This document shows positions 2,137-30,566 of a stretch of DNA of 64,000 nucleotides, one piece after another. Numbering within the stretch: position 1 is the stretch's first letter; each line of letters starts with the position of its first letter. A model generated the notes under the pieces. The model was given only the letters and a program-made list of their open reading frames with translations. It did not search any database and had not been told where the DNA came from. Source of the DNA: a phage. Both the position numbers and the translations under genes were made by a program. The DNA is taken from the sequence record NC_104726.1; one strand, written 5' to 3'.

Positions 2137-5100
2137 TTACTTCAGTTTCTCTTGCAACCCAGTAACAACCTCTGTCAATTTTTTAACCTGCTCCTCAAGG
2201 GCGGTTATTTTATCGTCCTGTTCCCTGCAAACCTGGACAAGCAAGCCTGTTACGGCTGCGTAATCCACGCTATAGAATCTTTCCTCTGTTATCAAAGGAG
2301 TTCCATCTTGATCAGAGTTTGGGATTTCCTTTCTTTGCACGAAAGAGCTAACTGCTTCCGGCAGCGCTTCAAGCACTTCTTGTGCTATAACACCTGCATA
2401 AGGCATACCGTTCTCTTTAAGAGTGTAAGTATAACCCTTCATCTTCCGGATAGCTTCTAACGCATCAGGAATAACAGCTATGTTGTCTTTCAGGTCTCTG
2501 TCAGAGCTCTGATTGACAGATGTGCAATTCACTGCACCGTTTACAGAAAGATATCTTGATTTATCCGGCAAGGTACCGCAATGCCATACCCAATTTGCTT
2601 GAGACTCGTCAAGAACCTTAAACTCTAACACGTTTGGACGAGCCCCTGTGCTGCCGTTACCCCAATAATGCATATGGGCGGCATTAGCAGGCATGTTGCC
2701 ACCGTTATTAGTAACATGGCTTCCAGAAATATACACCTTTAACTCTGGGGTAGGTATTTCCCCTTCTGGGGTTGTTCCTCCATACCTGAAGCTAACACCA
2801 TTACCACCTGTTTGGGTCCACGGTCCCCAAGTGAAGACCTGTTTCACCATATTCCCATAACGTGTAAATCTATCGCCATGATAGGTAATATACTCTTGAA
2901 CACACCCATTACCATTATTGGCGTTATTTTGCAACACAATAAGTGTTCCGGCCTCATTTACGGGATAATGACGATCATATGTTGCATCATTATTTGCAGG
3001 CTGATGGTAAATACCTTCCCACAATCCGTGATAGGTGTTAAGGTCTGAAGTACCAAGACCCTGACCCCTGTGTTGCATAGCCTTATTCCAGGGATGGTGA
3101 TTACCACCTTCTATAGACCTGGTATACAAGTTACTTTGTCTGCCAGCAATCTGGAAAGCGTAGTTTCCAGAGAATCCTACAGATAAACCGCCTACAACCA
3201 TGGTATCTTGTGGGCCGTTAACATTACCAGCTATTATTTTTGACGGGTTGTTAGGCCCAAACTGGTTGTTCCAGTCTGCACCCGTGTGGCATACAAAACC
3301 ACCAGGAGCTGAGAAAGTGCCATCTTTGTTGAAATTGTAGAACTTATGAGCTGTACCTACAACATCGCGAACGATAACTTGACCAGCTTCCGGAGTAGAT
3401 CTGAACTCTGCCTGGCCTTGCAGTCTTGCACCATTACCACATTTAGAGGTAAAGGTGTTGTTGATCAGATCCTCTGTTCCTTCCGATGCAGCTTGGAACC
3501 CTGCGTTAGAGAACAGTGCTTTTCTAGTGGTCTGACTGCCAGGACAAATGTAGTCAATACCGTCTGCCCATAGCTCGACTTTTGGCATATTCATTTTGCT
3601 CATCACAGCATAGCGTTCAGCAGTGCCTATATAGTGCCACTGTGTGCCGCCACCAGTGTAGAACCCTGAAGTCCCTTTGAAGTCAACAATAGGTCTGGTG
3701 TTGGTATTATTATCTCCAAGAACAGCAAGATTCAAATCTGCTGACTGGAGAGGTGCAACGAACTTAACACCGTCCTGATTGTCTGTTACAGAGCCAACCT
3801 GGTAATCTTGCTCCCTGGTAAACACCTCGACAACATTTCTACTTGCGTATATGCTGACAGGGAAAGCACGCGCCTCTGCATAGAAAGCAACATATTCTTG
3901 TTTACCCCTTGTTGGAGCAACCATCCCAAGAAGTGCTTTTTCATTCTGGTAGAAATTTACTACCCCGTAGAAAGAGTCTCCTCTGTTTGTCCAACCACCA
4001 GTTCTATAGTGACACTGTAAGGTCGCACAGTTCATAGGGTCATTTCCAGATGAAGACCTGGTGACTATAGTAATATCTGTACCTGTCGAAGGGGCGTAAT
4101 ACGGATCTGTTCTAACGATGATTGGGTAGTATTTCCCATCTTCCATCCCTGCGGTTCTTGGCAGTGTTAAGAAGTCTTTTACACCTGCTGCTATAGGAAC
4201 TTTGAACAGATTCTGAGCGTCTGCTAAAGTTGTAGCCCCAGTGCCACCTGCGGCTTGAGGTAGAGGTTCCCACTTGGCCTTCCGGTTGTTATAAACACCC
4301 CATTCAAGCGTTCCTTCACCTTGCTCGTCCATACCGCCATCCCAGACAACCATCTTGGCGGCTTTCTTGGACCCCCAGAAACCTCTTTCTGCCCCTGAAC
4401 TACGGATCCACTCTCCAAGTCCCCAGTTTGCCAGCTGACCGTTCAGATCACCAACCTGCATATATTTAGGACAATCTAAGACCCCATCCTCACGGAAGCC
4501 TAAATAGCTATGAGTTTCAGATCCTTTTGCGCCTTTGTGCAGGTGGATTGTCAACCAAGCCTTATTGTCGTTTCTTACCTCAGAGTAGATCCTATACCCA
4601 TGCTCAAGGACACCGTCAGCGCCGTATTTATCCCCATGGAGAATACCTGATGGAGACTTAACCTCAGAAGTGCTTTGAGATAGGTAAAGGTTCCCGAAGG
4701 TAGGGGTATTTCTAGACCCGAGACCGATGTGCGATCTAAAGGTATCATCGTTACGAGGTCTGACCATCGGCTGCCATGCAGTCCACTGATTTGTGTTGGC
4801 CTGATAGGTTCTCAAATACCAAACATCTACGTTAGAGAATGGATAGTATTCCTGACGACAACCTGTACCGCCGTTAGCATTGTTCTGCCAGACAATCAAG
4901 TGACCAGCACCAGAACCTGCAGGGTAACCATTTGCCTCAGTTGCATAAGCAGTCATCGGCTGGTAGTATACACCATCCTGATTACCAGTCAAGTTATTGA
5001 TATTGAAATTTGGCTCAAGGGCTGCACGTTGCTTATAGAAAGCACCGATATTGATACGGACCCCAGCGGCATCTCTAGCCCCTGTGCCGCCTTGCTCTAT

Positions 5101-5955
5101 AGCAAGAGGTTGCCACGAAGCTGTTTGTTGGTTCCACATACCCCAACGGCCTGTTGCATCAAGCTGCAAGTACCCTGCCGTATTTAAATCATCTCCAGCA
5201 CGGATAACTGTTCTTGTTGGGTTGTTTGCCTCTAGGCGTTTAAATTCATCACGAAGTGCTATTCTTTTCGTTGTTGCTACACCGTTGGTTACTGCAATGG
5301 TGTACATGGCTCCGGTGGTAGCGCCACGGAAAATACCATCAACAGTTGTAGTATCACGACGAGATACCACACCGTTCAGAAATTTTTCACCAGCTGCTAC
5401 AGAAGGGTAGTTGGTAGTTCTTCCCTCTTCAATAACTGCAGGGCCAACAAAGTTATCAAGGTGAATAACATCGCCTACAGTGTGCACTGTACCAAAATCT
5501 ACACGCTGTGCAAGTGCTTTGGCATCGTTAGCTGTCTGAACAGTAACATCCATTACATCCTGGACAGACTGCCCTTCGGCTGTCATGATCATAGATGCGC
5601 CAATGGTAGATTCCAGCTCCTCCCTTAAGGACGGGTCAGTATATACCATCCATGCAGCATCAGTGATCCCACCATCGGAGTACGGTGAAGACAGTGCAGG
5701 AACAGTGTGCGGAAATTCGCCTTTCCAACGTAGGTAGAGGTCTTCCTCTTCGAAGTAGGCAAAATCCATTGGGCCGTTTAACTTACCACCTTCCTTAAAG
5801 GAGATTACATGAGAAACAGTCCCATCCACATGGACAACATCGCCAATTTTTACACGACGGGTCAGGTCTGGTTGTTGAACAACCAGGTAATCATCCTCTG
5901 TCACTGCGGTAGTGGCAGGAAGAGATTCAATTCTGACAACTTTAATATCAGCCAT
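2137..5955 (-). CDS. long tail fiber / tailspike with C-terminal intramolecular chaperone (peptidase S74-like) domain
   Basis: 1272 aa; N-terminal anchor MADIKVVRIESLPATT...YLVVQQPDLTRRVKIGDVV; C-terminal ~120 aa (SDRDLKDNIAVIPDALEAIRKMKGYTY...coiled coil) typical of auto-cleaving fiber chaperone; internal duplicated segment NNANGGTGCRQEY / NNANNGNGCVQEY. Confidence 0.8.
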   Translation of the reverse strand: MADIKVVRIESLPATTAVTEDDYLVVQQPDLTRRVKIGDVVHVDGTVSHVISFKEGGKLNGPMDFAYFEEEDLYLRWKGEFPHTVPALSSPYSDGGITDAAWMVYTDPSLREELESTIGASMIMTAEGQSVQDVMDVTVQTANDAKALAQRVDFGTVHTVGDVIHLDNFVGPAVIEEGRTTNYPSVAAGEKFLNGVVSRRDTTTVDGIFRGATTGAMYTIAVTNGVATTKRIALRDEFKRLEANNPTRTVIRAGDDLNTAGYLQLDATGRWGMWNQQTASWQPLAIEQGGTGARDAAGVRINIGAFYKQRAALEPNFNINNLTGNQDGVYYQPMTAYATEANGYPAGSGAGHLIVWQNNANGGTGCRQEYYPFSNVDVWYLRTYQANTNQWTAWQPMVRPRNDDTFRSHIGLGSRNTPTFGNLYLSQSTSEVKSPSGILHGDKYGADGVLEHGYRIYSEVRNDNKAWLTIHLHKGAKGSETHSYLGFREDGVLDCPKYMQVGDLNGQLANWGLGEWIRSSGAERGFWGSKKAAKMVVWDGGMDEQGEGTLEWGVYNNRKAKWEPLPQAAGGTGATTLADAQNLFKVPIAAGVKDFLTLPRTAGMEDGKYYPIIVRTDPYYAPSTGTDITIVTRSSSGNDPMNCATLQCHYRTGGWTNRGDSFYGVVNFYQNEKALLGMVAPTRGKQEYVAFYAEARAFPVSIYASRNVVEVFTREQDYQVGSVTDNQDGVKFVAPLQSADLNLAVLGDNNTNTRPIVDFKGTSGFYTGGGTQWHYIGTAERYAVMSKMNMPKVELWADGIDYICPGSQTTRKALFSNAGFQAASEGTEDLINNTFTSKCGNGARLQGQAEFRSTPEAGQVIVRDVVGTAHKFYNFNKDGTFSAPGGFVCHTGADWNNQFGPNNPSKIIAGNVNGPQDTMVVGGLSVGFSGNYAFQIAGRQSNLYTRSIEGGNHHPWNKAMQHRGQGLGTSDLNTYHGLWEGIYHQPANNDATYDRHYPVNEAGTLIVLQNNANNGNGCVQEYITYHGDRFTRYGNMVKQVFTWGPWTQTGGNGVSFRYGGTTPEGEIPTPELKVYISGSHVTNNGGNMPANAAHMHYWGNGSTGARPNVLEFKVLDESQANWVWHCGTLPDKSRYLSVNGAVNCTSVNQSSDRDLKDNIAVIPDALEAIRKMKGYTYTLKENGMPYAGVIAQEVLEALPEAVSSFVQRKEIPNSDQDGTPLITEERFYSVDYAAVTGLLVQVCREQDDKITALEEQVKKLTEVVTGLQEKLK

Positions 5956-5968
5956 TCTTTCTCCTGAA

Positions 5969-5987
5969 AGGGGGCAAACAGCCCCCT
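5969..5987 (-). promoter_or_regulatory. GC hairpin between tailspike and tail fiber genes, immediately 5' of fiber RBS
   Basis: AGGGGGC-AAACA-GCCCCCT; on minus strand followed by TTCAGGAGAAAGA-ATG; weak U tract. Confidence 0.35.
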
Positions 5988-5990
5988 ATG

Positions 5991-8588
5991 TTAAAGGTAC
6001 AATCCACGGTATTGAGCATAAAGGCCCAGACCGCGAAGGATTTCGCCAGAGTGATAGCCAACCGGATCAGAAACTGCCCAGCAGCCGTTTAAAACATTAT
6101 CCCCATTAATGAAGTGGTGCTTTTGCAGTAGCTTCACACAGGCTTCTACAACAATATCTATTTGAGGTATTGTCTCTGAATACCCGCACAGACCTAGCCA
6201 GCAGCAACCTGCAAGCCATTCACCTACCACCCACATCCTGTCTCCTCTGTCCTGATAAGAATATCCCCCAGAGGTGTTAAAGTCTGTAGGTAGATTTCCT
6301 GAATGAGATGACTGGAATCTGTTGAGGAACCATGCCCATTTCTGGCAGAACAGGAACAGTCTTTCATCAACAGGTTCTTTATGTTTCTTGAGCTCATATA
6401 TTGTGCGGCACGCAGCAACAAAAGATCTTGACTGGAGCTTAGAGTTATCTACCATCTCCCACCAACCAGTCAACCCTTCATTACCTCTCTGCCATACATA
6501 ACGTGAGGCAACTGGACCCTCTGTCTTAAATGTATTATTATACCAGACTTGAGCGTCATACAGAAAGCCTATTGTATTTGACAATCTATGGCGATCTATG
6601 TTTTCTGCACCCATGCAGTAGACTGCTGGGTATTGCATGCCTGGGTAGGGCCAATTTGGCCTTTCCTCTAAGAGATAGTTTTCCTTATCTATCACCTTTC
6701 CGGCAGGGAACACACCTGGTGTGTGCCTGTATGCACCTTGCTTGTAGTTTCTGACATAGCAATCACCAACCTTAGCGGTTGATTCTGTCTTGCTTGCCAT
6801 CCATACGCTAAACCAGATTAGATAAGCATCCCTATCTGCAATATAGAATTGCGGCAGTGTGTTGACGCAATATAGATCAAACAAGCCATTACCTATCTGC
6901 CTGTCGCTTAGGCTGAAATCTACAGAGGTGAGTCCCTTAGGATTAGCAAAGAAAGGTTTAATCTCTTCTTCAGTGTGATGAGGTTGTGTCGGATCTAGTT
7001 TGAAATCTCCTAGAGTAAGAGTTTCTGTTATCCATTGTCCATTAGTGGCATATAGATCAGCATACCATAACCACCTGTCTTTGTCAAGAAATTTGACCCT
7101 TACCATCTCATCATCTGATCGATAAGTTACTGAGTTTAAAGAAATCTCTCTTCCAAAATTGAAAGTTACTTTGCCTCTTGCTATATTACAACGGGTGAAG
7201 TTGTCAGAGTGGTTGTAAATGTCAGTATCGTACTGCATACTAACACTGGCACCACCGCTCACGGCAATGTTTTCCTCTTTAGGTAAGAGGTACGGATTAC
7301 CGTCTTTACCAACTACCTCTACGAAATCAGTAACCTTGGCAACTATTTCTGTTACCTCTGCCCCTCCAAAAGGAACCCCTATCCTGTACTGTTTTTTGTT
7401 ATTGTTGCCATCATTAAGGATGAAATGTGGCTGGAACAGAACCCCTTCTCCTCCGAAATTCATAACAATTTCAGCATCTCTGCCTATTTTGTATGTAGTC
7501 CCTTTTTGAATTATTTCGCAAGGCTGGCGTGCGTTCATTCTAAAATTGATATACCCGTCACTGTCCCTACTCATGACAGGAACTGTTCCTGCAACAAGAC
7601 AAGTACCATCTGTGAACGGTGCCTTAATCAACGTGGTCTTTCTAAACAGTTTGTCGTAGGCGTTTATGTCACTGAAATTAAGCAACTTGTTGTAAGACTG
7701 TTTAAACGCGGTGTAATACTTTTCTTCACCTGTCAAGGTGTAGAGTTGATAACAAGCGTCACACCACATTTCTTCCCCGTCCAACTCTGGGGCCTGATTA
7801 TCTGCAACCACGTTTATAGGATTTACAATTACAGGGGATCCAGCAGGTATCACCGATCCACCCTGCTCTTGAGGTAATCTTACACAATAGGTCACCTTGT
7901 GGCTTCCTGTAACACCCTTATCTTGTAATTGGATTGTGCCGAACTCTATAGACGTATGCCCACTGTCGGCTATGCTCCCGTTATCCCAATAGCGGTTACC
8001 ATCCCATGCTATGTACCACTCAACCCACCAACTTAATCCGGATGTTGTCCAATCTGGGTTAGCATCTGTGCCACCGTAAACATCAGAGTCTACAGTGTTT
8101 CTTCCTAACACACCGTTATACGCTTGGAATGCCTTGTCCAGGTATTCCCCCCATGTCGGAGATCCAGCTGGGATTTTTCCTCTACCGTTGGTAAAAGACA
8201 CTACCACATCTTTAAACCCACCGTGTGATGGAACCCCATCTGTGGATAGAGGGTAGTGGGACAATCTTTGCATTTTACTTTCTACGGCATATGCACCCAG
8301 AAGATGACTATTGTAAGCTTCCCAAGCATCTTTTGCCCTATCCAGATAGAAATCGCTTTTCGATGCCCTGTATGCTTCAATGTATCCCAGAATCAACACA
8401 GCTTGGGACTCATGCATTGCCCAATCGTTATTTATCTTATTACCTGCCCACCCTGCAGCTATAAGACCATCAGGGTTTACTAGCTTATTTTGTGTAGGTG
8501 TGTTGGTAATACCTGTGTTGTTATCGAGGCACTTCCTGTGCCCCTCAATCATCTGAAATACGTTATCAATGTTGTGTTGAATACGCAT
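5991..8588 (-). CDS. putative tailspike / receptor-binding protein with glycoside-hydrolase-like region
   Basis: 865 aa, between two fiber genes; N-terminal region has an alpha/alpha-barrel glycosidase-like flavour; assignment by position and composition only. Confidence 0.35.
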   Translation of the reverse strand: MRIQHNIDNVFQMIEGHRKCLDNNTGITNTPTQNKLVNPDGLIAAGWAGNKINNDWAMHESQAVLILGYIEAYRASKSDFYLDRAKDAWEAYNSHLLGAYAVESKMQRLSHYPLSTDGVPSHGGFKDVVVSFTNGRGKIPAGSPTWGEYLDKAFQAYNGVLGRNTVDSDVYGGTDANPDWTTSGLSWWVEWYIAWDGNRYWDNGSIADSGHTSIEFGTIQLQDKGVTGSHKVTYCVRLPQEQGGSVIPAGSPVIVNPINVVADNQAPELDGEEMWCDACYQLYTLTGEEKYYTAFKQSYNKLLNFSDINAYDKLFRKTTLIKAPFTDGTCLVAGTVPVMSRDSDGYINFRMNARQPCEIIQKGTTYKIGRDAEIVMNFGGEGVLFQPHFILNDGNNNKKQYRIGVPFGGAEVTEIVAKVTDFVEVVGKDGNPYLLPKEENIAVSGGASVSMQYDTDIYNHSDNFTRCNIARGKVTFNFGREISLNSVTYRSDDEMVRVKFLDKDRWLWYADLYATNGQWITETLTLGDFKLDPTQPHHTEEEIKPFFANPKGLTSVDFSLSDRQIGNGLFDLYCVNTLPQFYIADRDAYLIWFSVWMASKTESTAKVGDCYVRNYKQGAYRHTPGVFPAGKVIDKENYLLEERPNWPYPGMQYPAVYCMGAENIDRHRLSNTIGFLYDAQVWYNNTFKTEGPVASRYVWQRGNEGLTGWWEMVDNSKLQSRSFVAACRTIYELKKHKEPVDERLFLFCQKWAWFLNRFQSSHSGNLPTDFNTSGGYSYQDRGDRMWVVGEWLAGCCWLGLCGYSETIPQIDIVVEACVKLLQKHHFINGDNVLNGCWAVSDPVGYHSGEILRGLGLYAQYRGLYL

Positions 8589-26774: not shown

Positions 26775-27753
26775 CCTTATATTCAAAGGTGGTCGCAACA
26801 CCACCCTCCGCACCATTACGTGCCGCTGCATGTTACCATGCAGAGTAGACTATATCACCACCCATCTCAGGGTGCTTCGCTTTTCGAGCGCCATAGGCTT
26901 GCGCCCTACTCCCTCTCGGGATAGTCGTTGAACTACATTACCAATCGTAATTGTTTGAAATATAGGTGTAAGTCTTACGGTCTTTTATTCCTTTAACAAC
27001 ACTAAAACTTACGCCCCACTTCTTAGCTATTTTATTTACACACAAAACCCTATCACTAAGATCCTCGCAGATACCTATTATCTTGTGCTCACTTATCCTA
27101 TTAGAGGTTGGCACTTTTCTAAAGTTAAACTCTTTAGAAATATCTGGGTATACTGAGCCATTCTTTATACCACTTACAAGTGGTTGATTGACACCAAACA
27201 TTTCACAAATGTCTTTTACCCTTGCACCTTGCTCTAACAGTCTACATATTTCAAGAGCAGTGGCATCATCTAGGGACCTGTATTTATTGACATAGTCCTT
27301 TTTAAGTCCCATTTCATGAGCATGATGTGTGTTTTCCTCAGGTGTTGTCCACTCAAGGTTCCATGCGGCGTTATTCAACTTATTGCCATCAAGGTGATTT
27401 ACTTGAGTTTTCACGCTGGGATTATCATTATCAACAAAAGTCATAGCAATCACTCTGTGAACGAGCACTTGGAACTTTTTACCGTCCTCGCACAAAGTTA
27501 CCATAGCATAGCCAGTCTTTTTCTGCACATTAGGATGGAGGAATTTATTAGAATACAGACTGTAAATTCTGCCATCGTATGTAGCACAATAATGATTGTA
27601 GCCTAAAAAGCCTAAATTTTTCATTTCAAACATCTCCCTACTACAGGTTCGGAAGGGTAATTATAGCTGCTGATTGTCCGTTTAGCAATCGGATTTTCCA
27701 GCAATTAACGAAGTTATTCGACGTGCATTTCTGCACGAAGCCACTATCATTTA
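26775..27753 (-). mobile_element. group I intron 2 in terL, carrying HNH homing endonuclease ORF
   Basis: interrupts terL between ...SFSFIGATI and FDNPVCL...; coding strand carries R-like GTTCAACGACTA (26933-26922) and S-like GATATAGTC; exon ends in U, intron ends in G; boundaries +/- ~15 nt. Confidence 0.6.
26938..27633 (-). CDS. intron-encoded HNH homing endonuclease
   Basis: 231 aa; HNH motif HRVIAMTFVDNDNPSVKTQVNHLDGNKLNNAAWNLEW; lies wholly inside terL intron 2. Confidence 0.75.
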   Translation of the reverse strand: MFEMKNLGFLGYNHYCATYDGRIYSLYSNKFLHPNVQKKTGYAMVTLCEDGKKFQVLVHRVIAMTFVDNDNPSVKTQVNHLDGNKLNNAAWNLEWTTPEENTHHAHEMGLKKDYVNKYRSLDDATALEICRLLEQGARVKDICEMFGVNQPLVSGIKNGSVYPDISKEFNFRKVPTSNRISEHKIIGICEDLSDRVLCVNKIAKKWGVSFSVVKGIKDRKTYTYISNNYDW

Positions 27754-28073: not shown

Positions 28074-28390
28074 CTATGTTCGGGCAAGGTCGCTAGTCTT
28101 GCCCCGCCATTTTTCAGGCAGCTGCATGTCTCCATGCAGACCAGACTATATCTTATAAGCGACAACAACCGCTTACCCTCCCGTTTCGAATCGCTTGATT
28201 CTACGTCTTTCGACTAGTCGTTGAACGTTCATCCTCTCGGATGCTTCGCTGCGGATTATCTAAATTAACACACTGTTACCATACCTTCGATCTCTCTTCG
28301 AAGCCTCTATCATGTTACCATGACAGGTTGGTGGTGTCAATAATAAAGATTTCCCCGCAATTAGGGAGGTTTTACGAGAGCTACAAATTA
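28074..28390 (-). mobile_element. group I intron 1 in terL (no ORF)
   Basis: separates Walker-B exon (…MVCFDEG) from exon 2; coding strand has GTTCAACGACTAG (28225-28213) and AAGATATAGTCTGG (28154-28141); begins after U, ends with G; shares CTGCATG-N5-CATGCAG hairpin with intron 2. Confidence 0.6.
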
Positions 28391-28816
28391 ACCCTCATCG
28401 AAGCAAACCATGGTGTACTCAAGCCCTTGATGGTTAAGCTTATCTTGTACATACTCCATGTGGCAGTATTTTACAACAGCTCCCTTTTTGCTTCTATCCC
28501 ACTTACCAGTGTTAGGATCAAACCGTGGAAAAATGAACTTATGATCCTTCTCTCTGAACTTTGGCTTAATGTTTTCAGGCAGATCACTATAAATAGCTAC
28601 TGCTTTAGGCCATAGTCCACCCTCACCCTCCAACTGTGGAGTTGTTCTTCGGAACATAACCACAGAGCTGTGGGGGTCATCAATAATTTTAAGCGGCATC
28701 AACTGCAAAAGGAACGACTTGCCAGACCCTGCGGCACCGCCGATTACCAAAATATCTGCATCGTTTTCGAGGATCATCTTCTGCTTTTCAGAACACGGTC
28801 CGTAAATCTTAGACAT
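28391..28816 (-). CDS. terL: terminase large subunit, exon 1 (ATPase N-terminus)
   Basis: Walker A GGAAGSGKS and Walker B MVCFDE; ORF track 28388..28816 ends at an in-frame stop that is the first codon of the intron. Confidence 0.75.
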
Positions 28817-30007: not shown

Positions 30008-30082
30008 TGGTGGCCCTGGGTGGAATTGAACCACCGTCTGGCGATTATGAGTCGCTTGCTTGAACCTTCCAGCTACAGGGCC
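30008..30082 (-). tRNA. tRNA-Met (anticodon CAU; Met/Ile2 type undetermined)
   Basis: manual fold: acceptor GGCCCTG/CAGGGCC, anticodon loop CTCATAA, T arm GGTGG-TTCAATT-CCACC, encoded CCA. Confidence 0.7.
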
Positions 30083-30159: not shown

Positions 30160-30164
30160 AAAAA

Positions 30165-30263
30165 GGTGCTAGGTGATGGAATCGAACCACCTATGTATTC
30201 AACGACTACCTCGTCTATTTTCAGGATTAAAAATCCTCGCCCTTGCCAAAGGGCTTACCTAGC
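30165..30263 (-). tRNA. atypical tRNA-Lys (anticodon UUU) with ~29-nt extra hairpin in variable region
   Basis: acceptor GCTAGGT/ACCTAGC, D arm GCCC-TTTGGCAA-GGGC, anticodon arm AGGA-TTTTTAA-TCCT, T arm GGTGG-TTCGATT-CCATC; 99 nt, extra segment AAAATAGACGAGGTAGTCGTTGAATACAT between anticodon and T arms. Confidence 0.5.
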
Positions 30264-30361
30264 TCAGTATGTTGACCATGTTGCTAGTCGGCGATGACGA
30301 CTGTAACATTTGATAATCCGGTTCTGCTTCCGACTTTCGCTTAATTACAAGGTCAACAATG

Positions 30362-30452: not shown

Positions 30453-30566
30453 TTTATAAATAATACTGATAATGACACTGATTTTCGAGCAGTTAGTGAC
30501 TAGTATAAACGACGATAAATATCAATGCCATTATCTGTATTATTTATGCATCTAAAAATATAAATT

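Follow-up and report, generated by a model that had tools for sequence, protein, structure and literature searches.

A tRNA-like gene in the tRNA cluster of an rV5-like phage very probably belongs to a conserved family of long-armed RNAs

Introduction

The class II tRNAs (Ser, Leu and Tyr), which are also encoded in phage tRNA clusters, have a 7/5 cloverleaf with a canonical T loop, a G19-C56 pair and a stem-loop in the variable region. A long extra arm is likewise present in tRNA-Sec (Rfam RF01852), together with a purine-type position-8 linker and a 6-bp D stem closed by a UGGY tetraloop. A 6-bp D stem with a tetraloop is the hallmark of both tRNA-Sec and the allo-tRNAs (PMC5389517). The latter, described together with the SelC* tRNA-Cys by Mukai et al. 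in 2017, are irregular molecules that combine a Sec-like D arm with a long V-arm, carry G73 or U73 and occur with many anticodons; they have been proposed to act as suppressors or regulatory RNAs, and some are phage-encoded (PMC5389517).

Phage tRNA clusters contain further relevant molecules. At the end of its tRNA cluster, phage T4 encodes 2 small RNAs, rnaC and rnaD (species 1 and 2), which are 119-139 nt long and have no cloverleaf, rnaC carrying a T-arm-like hairpin. Clusters of phages T5 and SP15 encode a tRNA-Lys with a UUU loop that evades PARIS or PrrC and is an ordinary class I tRNA with point changes near the anticodon stem-loop (PMC11464382). Two further lines of work provide context, neither of them directly about the RNA described here: phage tRNAs counter PARIS, PrrC, Retron-Eco7 and Septu (PMC11464382, PMC11555353, PMC13096335), and PhiTE, a relative of the phages considered here, opposes ToxIN with an RNA mimic (PMC3475682).

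Here we describe a 99-nt tRNA-like gene located in a 64,000-nt stretch of phage DNA (NC_104726.1, hereafter the window), which very probably belongs to a family of long-armed tRNA-like RNAs that is conserved and restricted to phages. The family is previously undescribed: a full-text literature search found no description of this RNA, and public records either give the gene disparate tRNA labels or omit it. Phages resembling rV5, PVP-SE1 and phi92 are among the commonest coliphage isolates and are present in therapy cocktails and in the BASEL collection.

Results

The window derives from an rV5-like myovirus (Vequintavirus), and about 1 kb around the gene is 99.6% identical to isim, nimi and CarlMeissner and 99.5% identical to rV5. 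ARAGORN identified on the minus strand a cluster comprising, in order, tRNA-Arg, tRNA-Tyr, tRNA-Ser, the long-armed element, tRNA-Thr, tRNA-Met(CAU) and tRNA-Pro. A scan of the window found a promoter-like match (TTGACA...TAATAT) at 30819-30791, upstream of tRNA-Arg, and the rV5 record annotates a sigma-70-type promoter upstream of the same tRNA.

A previous reading of the sequence alone (the sequence-only reading) had proposed here a 99-nt gene with well-formed acceptor, D, anticodon and T arms, interrupted by a 29-nt extra segment with a GACGA hairpin. This description proved accurate, since it agrees with the ARAGORN call, the Rfam match and the minimum free energy (MFE) fold. ARAGORN placed the gene at exactly 30165-30263 on the minus strand and left its identity unassigned ('tRNA-???', anticodon 'atcc'). 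We rejected this 4-base anticodon because it depends on an alternative AUUUU/AAAAU stem which is possible only in the rV5 sequence and is unsupported in homologues. The Rfam tRNA model (RF00005) matched 30167-30263 with 35.5 bits (E 2.5e-05) and a 26-nt insertion in the variable region, above its gathering score of 29 bits. Among the 6 neighbouring tRNAs, 4 scored 60-71 bits with the same model, and tRNA-Ser (41.5 bits) and tRNA-Tyr (33.7 bits) were matched by the tRNA-Sec model only. The MFE fold of the 100-nt RNA is the cloverleaf plus the GACGA/UCGUU hairpin, with -34.2 kcal/mol and z = -3.3, and none of 200 shuffled sequences folded as well.

Numbering the RNA from window position 30263, the acceptor stem begins with GCUAGGU (30257-30263), which pairs with ACCUAGC at 30168-30174 and is followed, in the 3' segment spanning 30165-30174, by the discriminator A (30167) and CC (30165-30166); the next base is U, so that the window copy does not encode a full CCA. 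Position 8 is A and not U. The D arm, GCCC-UUUGGCAA-GGGC, occupies 30239-30254, and the anticodon-like arm, which can be drawn as AGGA(U)-UUUUUAA/UUUUA-(A)UCCU, occupies 30223-30237 with the 'anticodon' UUU at 30229-30231. Between this arm and the T arm (GGUGG-UUCGAUU-CCAUC, 30175-30191, with a canonical T loop) lie 31 nt (30192-30222), that is, the 29 nt of the sequence-only reading plus one on each side. This extra region consists of G-AAAAUA, the hairpin GACGA-GGUAG-UCGUU (30201-30215) and G-AAUACAUA.

Sensitive blastn searches that started from the window copy and continued from divergent copies retrieved 128, 181 and 226 phage records, and in total more than 25 distinct homologues were found in 5 Vequintavirinae genera, phi92-like phages, one N4-like phage and metagenomic phage contigs. 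The genera are Vequintavirus, Avunavirus (Av-05, 24-2-1), Seunavirus (PVP-SE1, SSE121, 4MG and GAP31 among others), Mydovirus (Mydo, Ro1 and Klebsiella phages) and Henunavirus (Erwinia phages); the phi92-like carriers belong to Justusliebigvirus (PaulScherrer, Eryne) and the only one from Schitoviridae is Salmonella phage UTK0002. Pattern scans of IMG/VR and metagenomes added copies on contigs of ~58-148 kb, on 2 of ~85-97 kb, on 3 fragments of 1-3 kb and on one of 866 kb. Homologues occur as one copy per genome or locus, every one of them within a tRNA cluster, and the element often starts 2 bases past the CCA of the preceding tRNA. Comparison of the neighbouring protein genes across lineages revealed none in common, and no protein partner was found.

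A host origin, or the existence of prophage copies, was rejected: blastn against 5,426 complete E. coli genomes gave no match to the element, and neither did a family-specific pattern applied to 100,044 bacterial and archaeal species, represented by one genome each. We then built a covariance model (R1) from 20 distinct copies, which gives family members 82-121 bits and the window copy 102 bits (30164-30263). The best non-member, a distant long-armed paralogue on contig L065, reached 39.9 bits, and ordinary tRNAs, including class II tRNAs, genuine tRNA-Lys and the T4 tRNA cluster with rnaC and rnaD, did not exceed 26.9 bits. With Rfam, the tRNA model passes only the window copy, 4 homologues have tRNA-Sec as best match at 27-39 bits (threshold 47), and the 3 copies from Mydo, Klebsiella DP and a phi92-like phage gave no match.

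In 2 phages the 5' part of the element has been deleted: V18 has a chimera in which the 5' half of tRNA-Tyr is joined to the 3' half of the element, and the deletion in O157 typing phage 4 is similar. The element is thus dispensable under laboratory conditions, which fits an accessory role such as anti-defence.

The alignment of the 20 sequences supports the fold. Standard pairs fill 98.6% of its 440 pair cells, a proportion that drops to 31-44% if the 3' partners are shifted along by 1-3 columns, and 11 of the 22 pairs have changed on both sides. All 4 stems covary: in the acceptor stem every cell is paired and 3 of its 7 pairs have changed on both sides, in the D stem 3 of the 4 core pairs covary, and covariation likewise extends to the anticodon-like and T stems. 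The tertiary G19-C56 pair follows the same rule, since G19 is replaced by U in exactly the 7 sequences in which C56 is replaced by A (U19-A56), and this perfect covariation of the elbow pair argues for a tRNA-like L-shape. The covariation score was equalled in none of 500 shuffles, a count that is not a probability because the sequences are related; the sliding control is the more telling of the two.

Conservation outside the helices is concentrated in the D loop, the T loop and both strands flanking the extra hairpin, which are near-invariant in the family. Within Vequintavirus, the few substitutions found in the gene leave its pairs intact (in the T stem, G-U becomes A-U or G-C), whereas the flanking spacers change more. 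As comparative evidence, these patterns show a family that folds as an L-shaped tRNA mimic under purifying selection, which constrains the body, the elbow, the 3' end and the strands next to the extra hairpin and not a particular anticodon. The family shares a 7-bp acceptor stem, a 5-bp T stem and an extra region of 31-40 nt, in which a hairpin of variable sequence is flanked by conserved, A-rich single-stranded segments.

The core departs from that of a tRNA. Positions 8, 14 and 15 are A, U and U, invariant in the family, where tRNAs have U, A and R, so that the core U8-A14 and R15-Y48 are absent; an A precedes the T stem. The D arm could instead form 6 bp with a tetraloop (UGGC, UGUC or UGGU) by adding U14-A21 and U15-A20, as the MFE fold predicts and as the Rfam tRNA-Sec alignment of the UTK0002 copy also draws it. 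Because these bases never vary, covariation is uninformative on the 2 extra pairs. Most lineages end in U73-CCA. In the rV5 clade the ending is A73-CC, and the discriminator is U73 in Av-05 and C73 in 24-2-1.

The extra arm combines invariant flanks with a variable hairpin. The 5' flank GAAAA(A)UA (GAAAAUA in the window) and the 3' flank (G/U)AAUACAUA are near-invariant, with GAAAA and AAUAC invariant. A hairpin is present in the same register in 18 of the 20 homologues (mean z = -2.26 against shuffles), with stems of 3-8 bp and unrelated sequences: GACGA/UCGUU, CCUCC/GGGAG, GCUCUC/GAGAGU, GCC/GGC, GUC/GAC and GUUAGAC/GUCUAAC. The length of the extra region is 31 nt for the rV5/Av-05 clade, compared with 39-40 nt for all other homologues in the alignment. 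The supposed 29-nt insert is therefore a shortened form of an arm that is an ancestral, conserved feature of the family, and probably not an insertion into a normal tRNA. Two functional readings of the arm were discarded. Sequences complementary to this conserved flank on the 3' side (CTATGTATT, with 1 mismatch allowed) number 8 in the window where 18 are expected, and the gene itself is the sole exact match, which rejects an sRNA-like seed; motifs of CsrA or Hfq type, inspected by eye, are inconsistent between lineages.

Among the unpaired loops of the cloverleaf proper, the anticodon-like loop is conserved least, and the loop of the extra-arm hairpin alone is equally variable. Its sequence is UUUUUAA in phages of the rV5 clade, UUUAUAA in those of the Av-05 clade and CAUCAAA in Henuna-, Justusliebig- and Ithacavirus, and elsewhere AAUCAAG, UAUCGAA, CCAUCAG, CCAUCCAG, CCUUCCAG, CCCUCAAG, CCAGCCAG or GUGAUA, making at least 11 different sequences of 5-8 nt in which U33 is mostly replaced by A or C. 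Even the Seunaviruses GE_vB_MG and PVP-SE1, which are 97% identical, differ in loop length. No part of a genuine isoacceptor family is more conserved than its anticodon loop; the reverse is seen here, as the orthologues lack a conserved 7-nt loop with U33, a purine at 37 and a stable anticodon, the window copy being canonical-looking. The drift of the loop is not free, since AUC recurs in many of these sequences. In PVP-SE1, an element whose loop contains UCC coexists with a normal tRNA-Gly(UCC).

These features set the family apart from each of the described systems. Class II tRNAs of the same phages score at most 26.9 bits with R1, and they differ from the family, in which the variable region spans 31-40 nt and places 6-9 conserved unpaired bases to either side of its hairpin, A8/U14/U15 replace U8/A14/R15 and the anticodon loop is unconserved and mostly non-canonical. 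Resemblance to tRNA-Sec, the best Rfam match for 4 homologues, includes the loop of several lineages (C-A-UCA-A-A, compared with C-U-UCA-A-A in Sec). However, scores remain below the 47-bit threshold, the acceptor stem has 7 bp and not the 8 of a 13-bp branch (the extra acceptor pairs of the Sec model are mismatched and covariation supports 7/5), position 73 is U or A and not G, U33 is replaced, and the window copy has UUU.

The allo-tRNAs are the nearest described analogues. A long V-arm, a Sec-like D arm, G73/U73 and varied anticodons are all found at the level of the family, with A73 in the window copy. In contrast, allo-tRNAs have an 8/4 or 9/3 branch and decodable 7-nt loops, whereas the family combines a 7/5 branch with an extra region that is longer and of different construction, and is found in enterobacterial lytic phages. 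Like the family, T4 rnaC and rnaD are small phage RNAs associated with a tRNA cluster, but homology to either was rejected, since R1 gave no match at the rnaC/rnaD region (L057 1909-2172).

Discussion

The reading that we favour, although we place it a little short of an even chance, is that the RNA acts as a non-decoding, tRNA-shaped mimic through its body and not through a fixed anticodon. The element would be co-transcribed with the tRNAs of the cluster and mature through the same enzymes as these (RNase P, 3' trimming and CCA repair), after which the tRNA-shaped body and the long arm may act as a mimic, decoy or substrate of a host or phage tRNA-binding enzyme; it would not be a dedicated lysine decoder. 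The UUU of the rV5 clade would then be a lineage-specific state of a drifting or diversifying loop. Several observations count against this mimic: the window loop looks canonical (U33, UUU, A37) and, with A73, offers what a Lys decoder needs; AUC recurs in the loops; the element is dispensable; and no conserved neighbour gene was found.

The sequence-only reading had instead taken the gene for a tRNA-Lys(UUU) of altered architecture, with an insertion. What stands of it is the long arm and, in the rV5 clade, UUUUUAA with A73. An architecture altered from that of a tRNA-Lys is not supported, since the arm is ancestral to a family with non-Lys and often non-canonical loops, and the gene is probably not a lysine tRNA with an insertion. 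Genuine tRNA-Lys genes of related phages are ordinary class I genes of 75-78 nt, without specific similarity to the element, and score 14.8-17.8 bits with R1, far from the 82-121 bits of family members. They resemble each other and E. coli tRNA-Lys; aligned with tRNA-Lys, the element has only generic tRNA positions in common, and its 31-nt variable region contrasts with the 4-5 nt of a tRNA-Lys. An origin from tRNA-Lys by insertion was therefore rejected on the alignment and the model scores. The T5 and SP15 tRNAs, alike in being phage-encoded, clustered and UUU-looped, are thus not homologous to the element.

Restricted to the rV5 clade, the idea of the sequence-only reading becomes that the family scaffold was adapted there into a working tRNA-Lys(UUU), charged by LysRS and reading AAA, whose unusual body might survive PrrC, RloC or the AriB nuclease of PARIS. 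UUU with A73 is the identity set of E. coli LysRS, and the complete set U34-U35-U36 plus A73 is present, by sequence, only in the window copy and the rV5 clade, where the loop UUUUUAA has U33 and A37 and the discriminator is A where most relatives have U. In addition, G30-A31/U39-C40 and the loop match E. coli tRNA-Lys except at position 32. tRNAscan-SE-based records say Lys/AAA, rV5 has no other annotated tRNA-Lys, and the loop of the element is non-Lys in lineages that also encode a normal tRNA-Lys; in at least 2 lineages, the phi92-like phages and contig L049, the element occurs together with a normal tRNA-Lys(UUU). Precedents exist, since phage tRNA-Lys defeats PARIS and PrrC (PMC11464382, PMC11555353). 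Nevertheless, we consider this adaptation unlikely. In the sister clade (Av-05, 24-2-1), UAU is combined with U73 or C73, an incoherent identity set; the anticodon stem is limited to 4 pairs plus a G-G juxtaposition, or to 5-6 pairs if the loop is reduced to 3-5 nt; A8/U14 replaces U8/A14; and specific similarity to real tRNA-Lys genes is lacking. Furthermore, a long variable arm, here of 31 nt, would face class II synthetases such as LysRS, and AAA is not a rare codon in E. coli.

The resemblance to allo-tRNAs raises the possibility of an adaptor charged by an anticodon-blind synthetase, most plausibly SerRS acting through the long arm and U73, which would serve as a missense or nonsense suppressor or as a non-translational aminoacyl donor. 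The long V-arm, the Sec-like D stem with its tetraloop, U73 and diverse 'anticodons' are as in allo-tRNAs (PMC5389517), the N-A-UCA-A-N loops of several lineages align to CUUCAAA in the Rfam tRNA-Sec model, and most lineages encode CCA. Yet the acceptor/T arrangement of 7/5 is not the 8/4 or 9/3 expected, C2-G71 stands in place of G2-C71, the 6-9 unpaired bases on each side of the hairpin are unlike tRNA-Ser, and serine at AAA or AUA would harm the proteins of the phage itself. Decoding should moreover be poor, because in most lineages U33 is absent and the loop has 5-8 nt, and for these reasons we regard such an adaptor as improbable.

A further reading would make the family a tRNA-shaped bait, which host tRNA-targeting immune nucleases or tRNA-modifying toxins take for a tRNA because of its conserved body and long arm, with a loop that diversifies from one phage lineage to another to match the locally attacked tRNA and that in the rV5 clade mimics or functionally replaces tRNA-Lys(UUU), the target of PrrC, RloC and PARIS. 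This proposal is doubtful, and we hold it with decidedly low confidence.

The sequence-only reading had also offered a pseudogene as an alternative, and a functionless decaying tRNA pseudogene or insertion relic might be suspected because annotation pipelines disagree on the gene or skip it, because some Vequintaviruses have deleted it and because the rV5 clade does not encode a full CCA. This is contradicted by compensatory changes in every helix and in the tertiary pair across distant phage groups, by the invariant D loop, T loop and arm flanks, and by retention across 3 phage taxa of a gene more conserved than its flanking spacers. The maintained pairing next to more variable spacers within Vequintavirus excludes a pseudogene, and we find functionless decay highly improbable.

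A last claim concerned an 11-mer shared with a terL intron. The exact match is real: TTCAACGACTA occurs at 30198-30208 on the plus strand and at 26922-26932 and 28215-28225 on the minus strand, so that the reported position 26933 is wrong by 1 nt. Of the minus-strand copies, that at 28215 falls within the R element of a group I intron (Rfam 84 bits), and 26922-26932 gave no Rfam match above threshold. The RNA strand of the gene is antisense to the R element, its UAGUCGUUGAA being exactly complementary to UUCAACGACUA, which is found twice upstream on the minus strand. However, 99-nt pieces drawn at random from the window average 5.6 exact 11-mer matches elsewhere, and only 3% lack such a match; given this chance level and the different hairpin of Av-05, we treated the match, which is not conserved in relatives, as a coincidence and rejected a functional link to the intron. 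That the extra arm regulates the terL group I introns as an antisense RNA, through 11 nt complementary to 2 sites of which one lies in an Rfam-supported R element, is accordingly barely credible, as matches of this length are expected by chance, the hairpin sequence is unconserved (UAGCCGUUGAA already in Av-05) and the hairpin stem sequesters half of the 11-mer.

Recognition of the family extends the irregular tRNA architectures by one that combines a 7/5 branch with a Sec-like D arm and an arm of 31-40 nt, and provides a handle on the role of non-decoding tRNA-like RNAs in phage tRNA clusters, a question that dates from T4 rnaC and rnaD. It is also timely, as tRNA-targeting defences (PrrC, PARIS, Retron-Eco7, Septu and Schlafen) and phage counter-tRNAs are now emerging; if the RNA were charged or acted as a decoy, it would represent a new anti-defence or recoding mechanism. 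Annotations should cease to treat the gene as a tRNA for Lys, Stop or Sec. It is at present labelled tRNA-Lys(AAA) in BASEL genomes (tRNAscan-SE) and tRNA-OTHER, tRNA-Stop(tta) or tRNA-???(atcc) elsewhere, and the rV5 reference leaves it unannotated.

Natural deletions and an insertion within the tRNA cluster

Two related phages carry natural deletions that extend into the long-armed tRNA-like element (window 30165-30263, minus strand). In V18 (locus L006, 977-1043), the 5' half of tRNA-Tyr is joined to the element's 3' portion, starting in the middle of the extra arm, while in O157 typing phage 4 (L007, ~990-1040) the same half is joined to the element from the T arm on, and through these deletions tRNA-Ser and the 5' part of the element have been lost. 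These tRNA-Tyr/element chimeras show both that recombination occurs within the tRNA cluster and that the element is dispensable. Additionally, a gene for an HNH homing endonuclease (L018, 407-799) has been inserted in Raoultella phage Ro1, where it separates tRNA-Thr from the element, resembling segB of the T4 tRNA cluster.

Other atypical tRNA-like genes and candidates

The metagenome contig Ga0308161_1000008 (L065) reaches 866 kb, and we know of no phage as large. Its segment from 4400 to 7200 is densely packed with 17 tRNA genes, among which Gly, Val and Arg recur in many copies. This array holds a single member of the family, at 7004-7112, with loop UAUCGAA and A73-CCA; a distantly related paralogue with a long arm and loop CCUCAAA lies at 5031-5137 and scores 39.9 bits on the family model. 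Rfam searches also returned unannotated, weak tRNA-like matches (tRNA at 35-39 bits or tRNA-Sec at ~30 bits) in the same clusters of related phages, at L032 981-1059, L012 and L013 1171-1250, L019 712-793 and L005 1298-1380; judging by these sequence matches, such clusters may commonly contain atypical tRNA-like genes.

Introns, spacers and the CAU tRNA of the window

Upstream of the tRNA cluster lies a group I intron (28122-28400, minus strand; Rfam, 84 bits), at a site where the rV5 annotation gives the terminase large subunit gene as three joined pieces. The 11-mer that its R element shares, in antisense, with the extra arm has a second copy ~1.3 kb away (26922-26932, minus strand), where Rfam gave no match above threshold and which may mark a second, more divergent intron.

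The AT-rich, 114-nt spacer between tRNA-Tyr and tRNA-Ser (30453-30566, minus strand) folds into a long, nearly perfect hairpin (-30.3 kcal/mol, z = -5.5, with 0 of 200 shuffles equally stable), and this predicted structure could be a processing signal or a further small RNA. The 98-nt spacer directly upstream of the element (30264-30361, minus strand) is closed by a GUUGACC/GGUCAAC stem, its overall fold being unexceptional (z = -1.55).

Finally, the tRNA at 30008-30082 (minus strand) is Met(CAT) according to ARAGORN and the rV5 annotation, but in the records of the BASEL phage collection it is annotated as a tRNA-Ile that reads ATA, which corresponds to a CAU tRNA of the Ile2 type.
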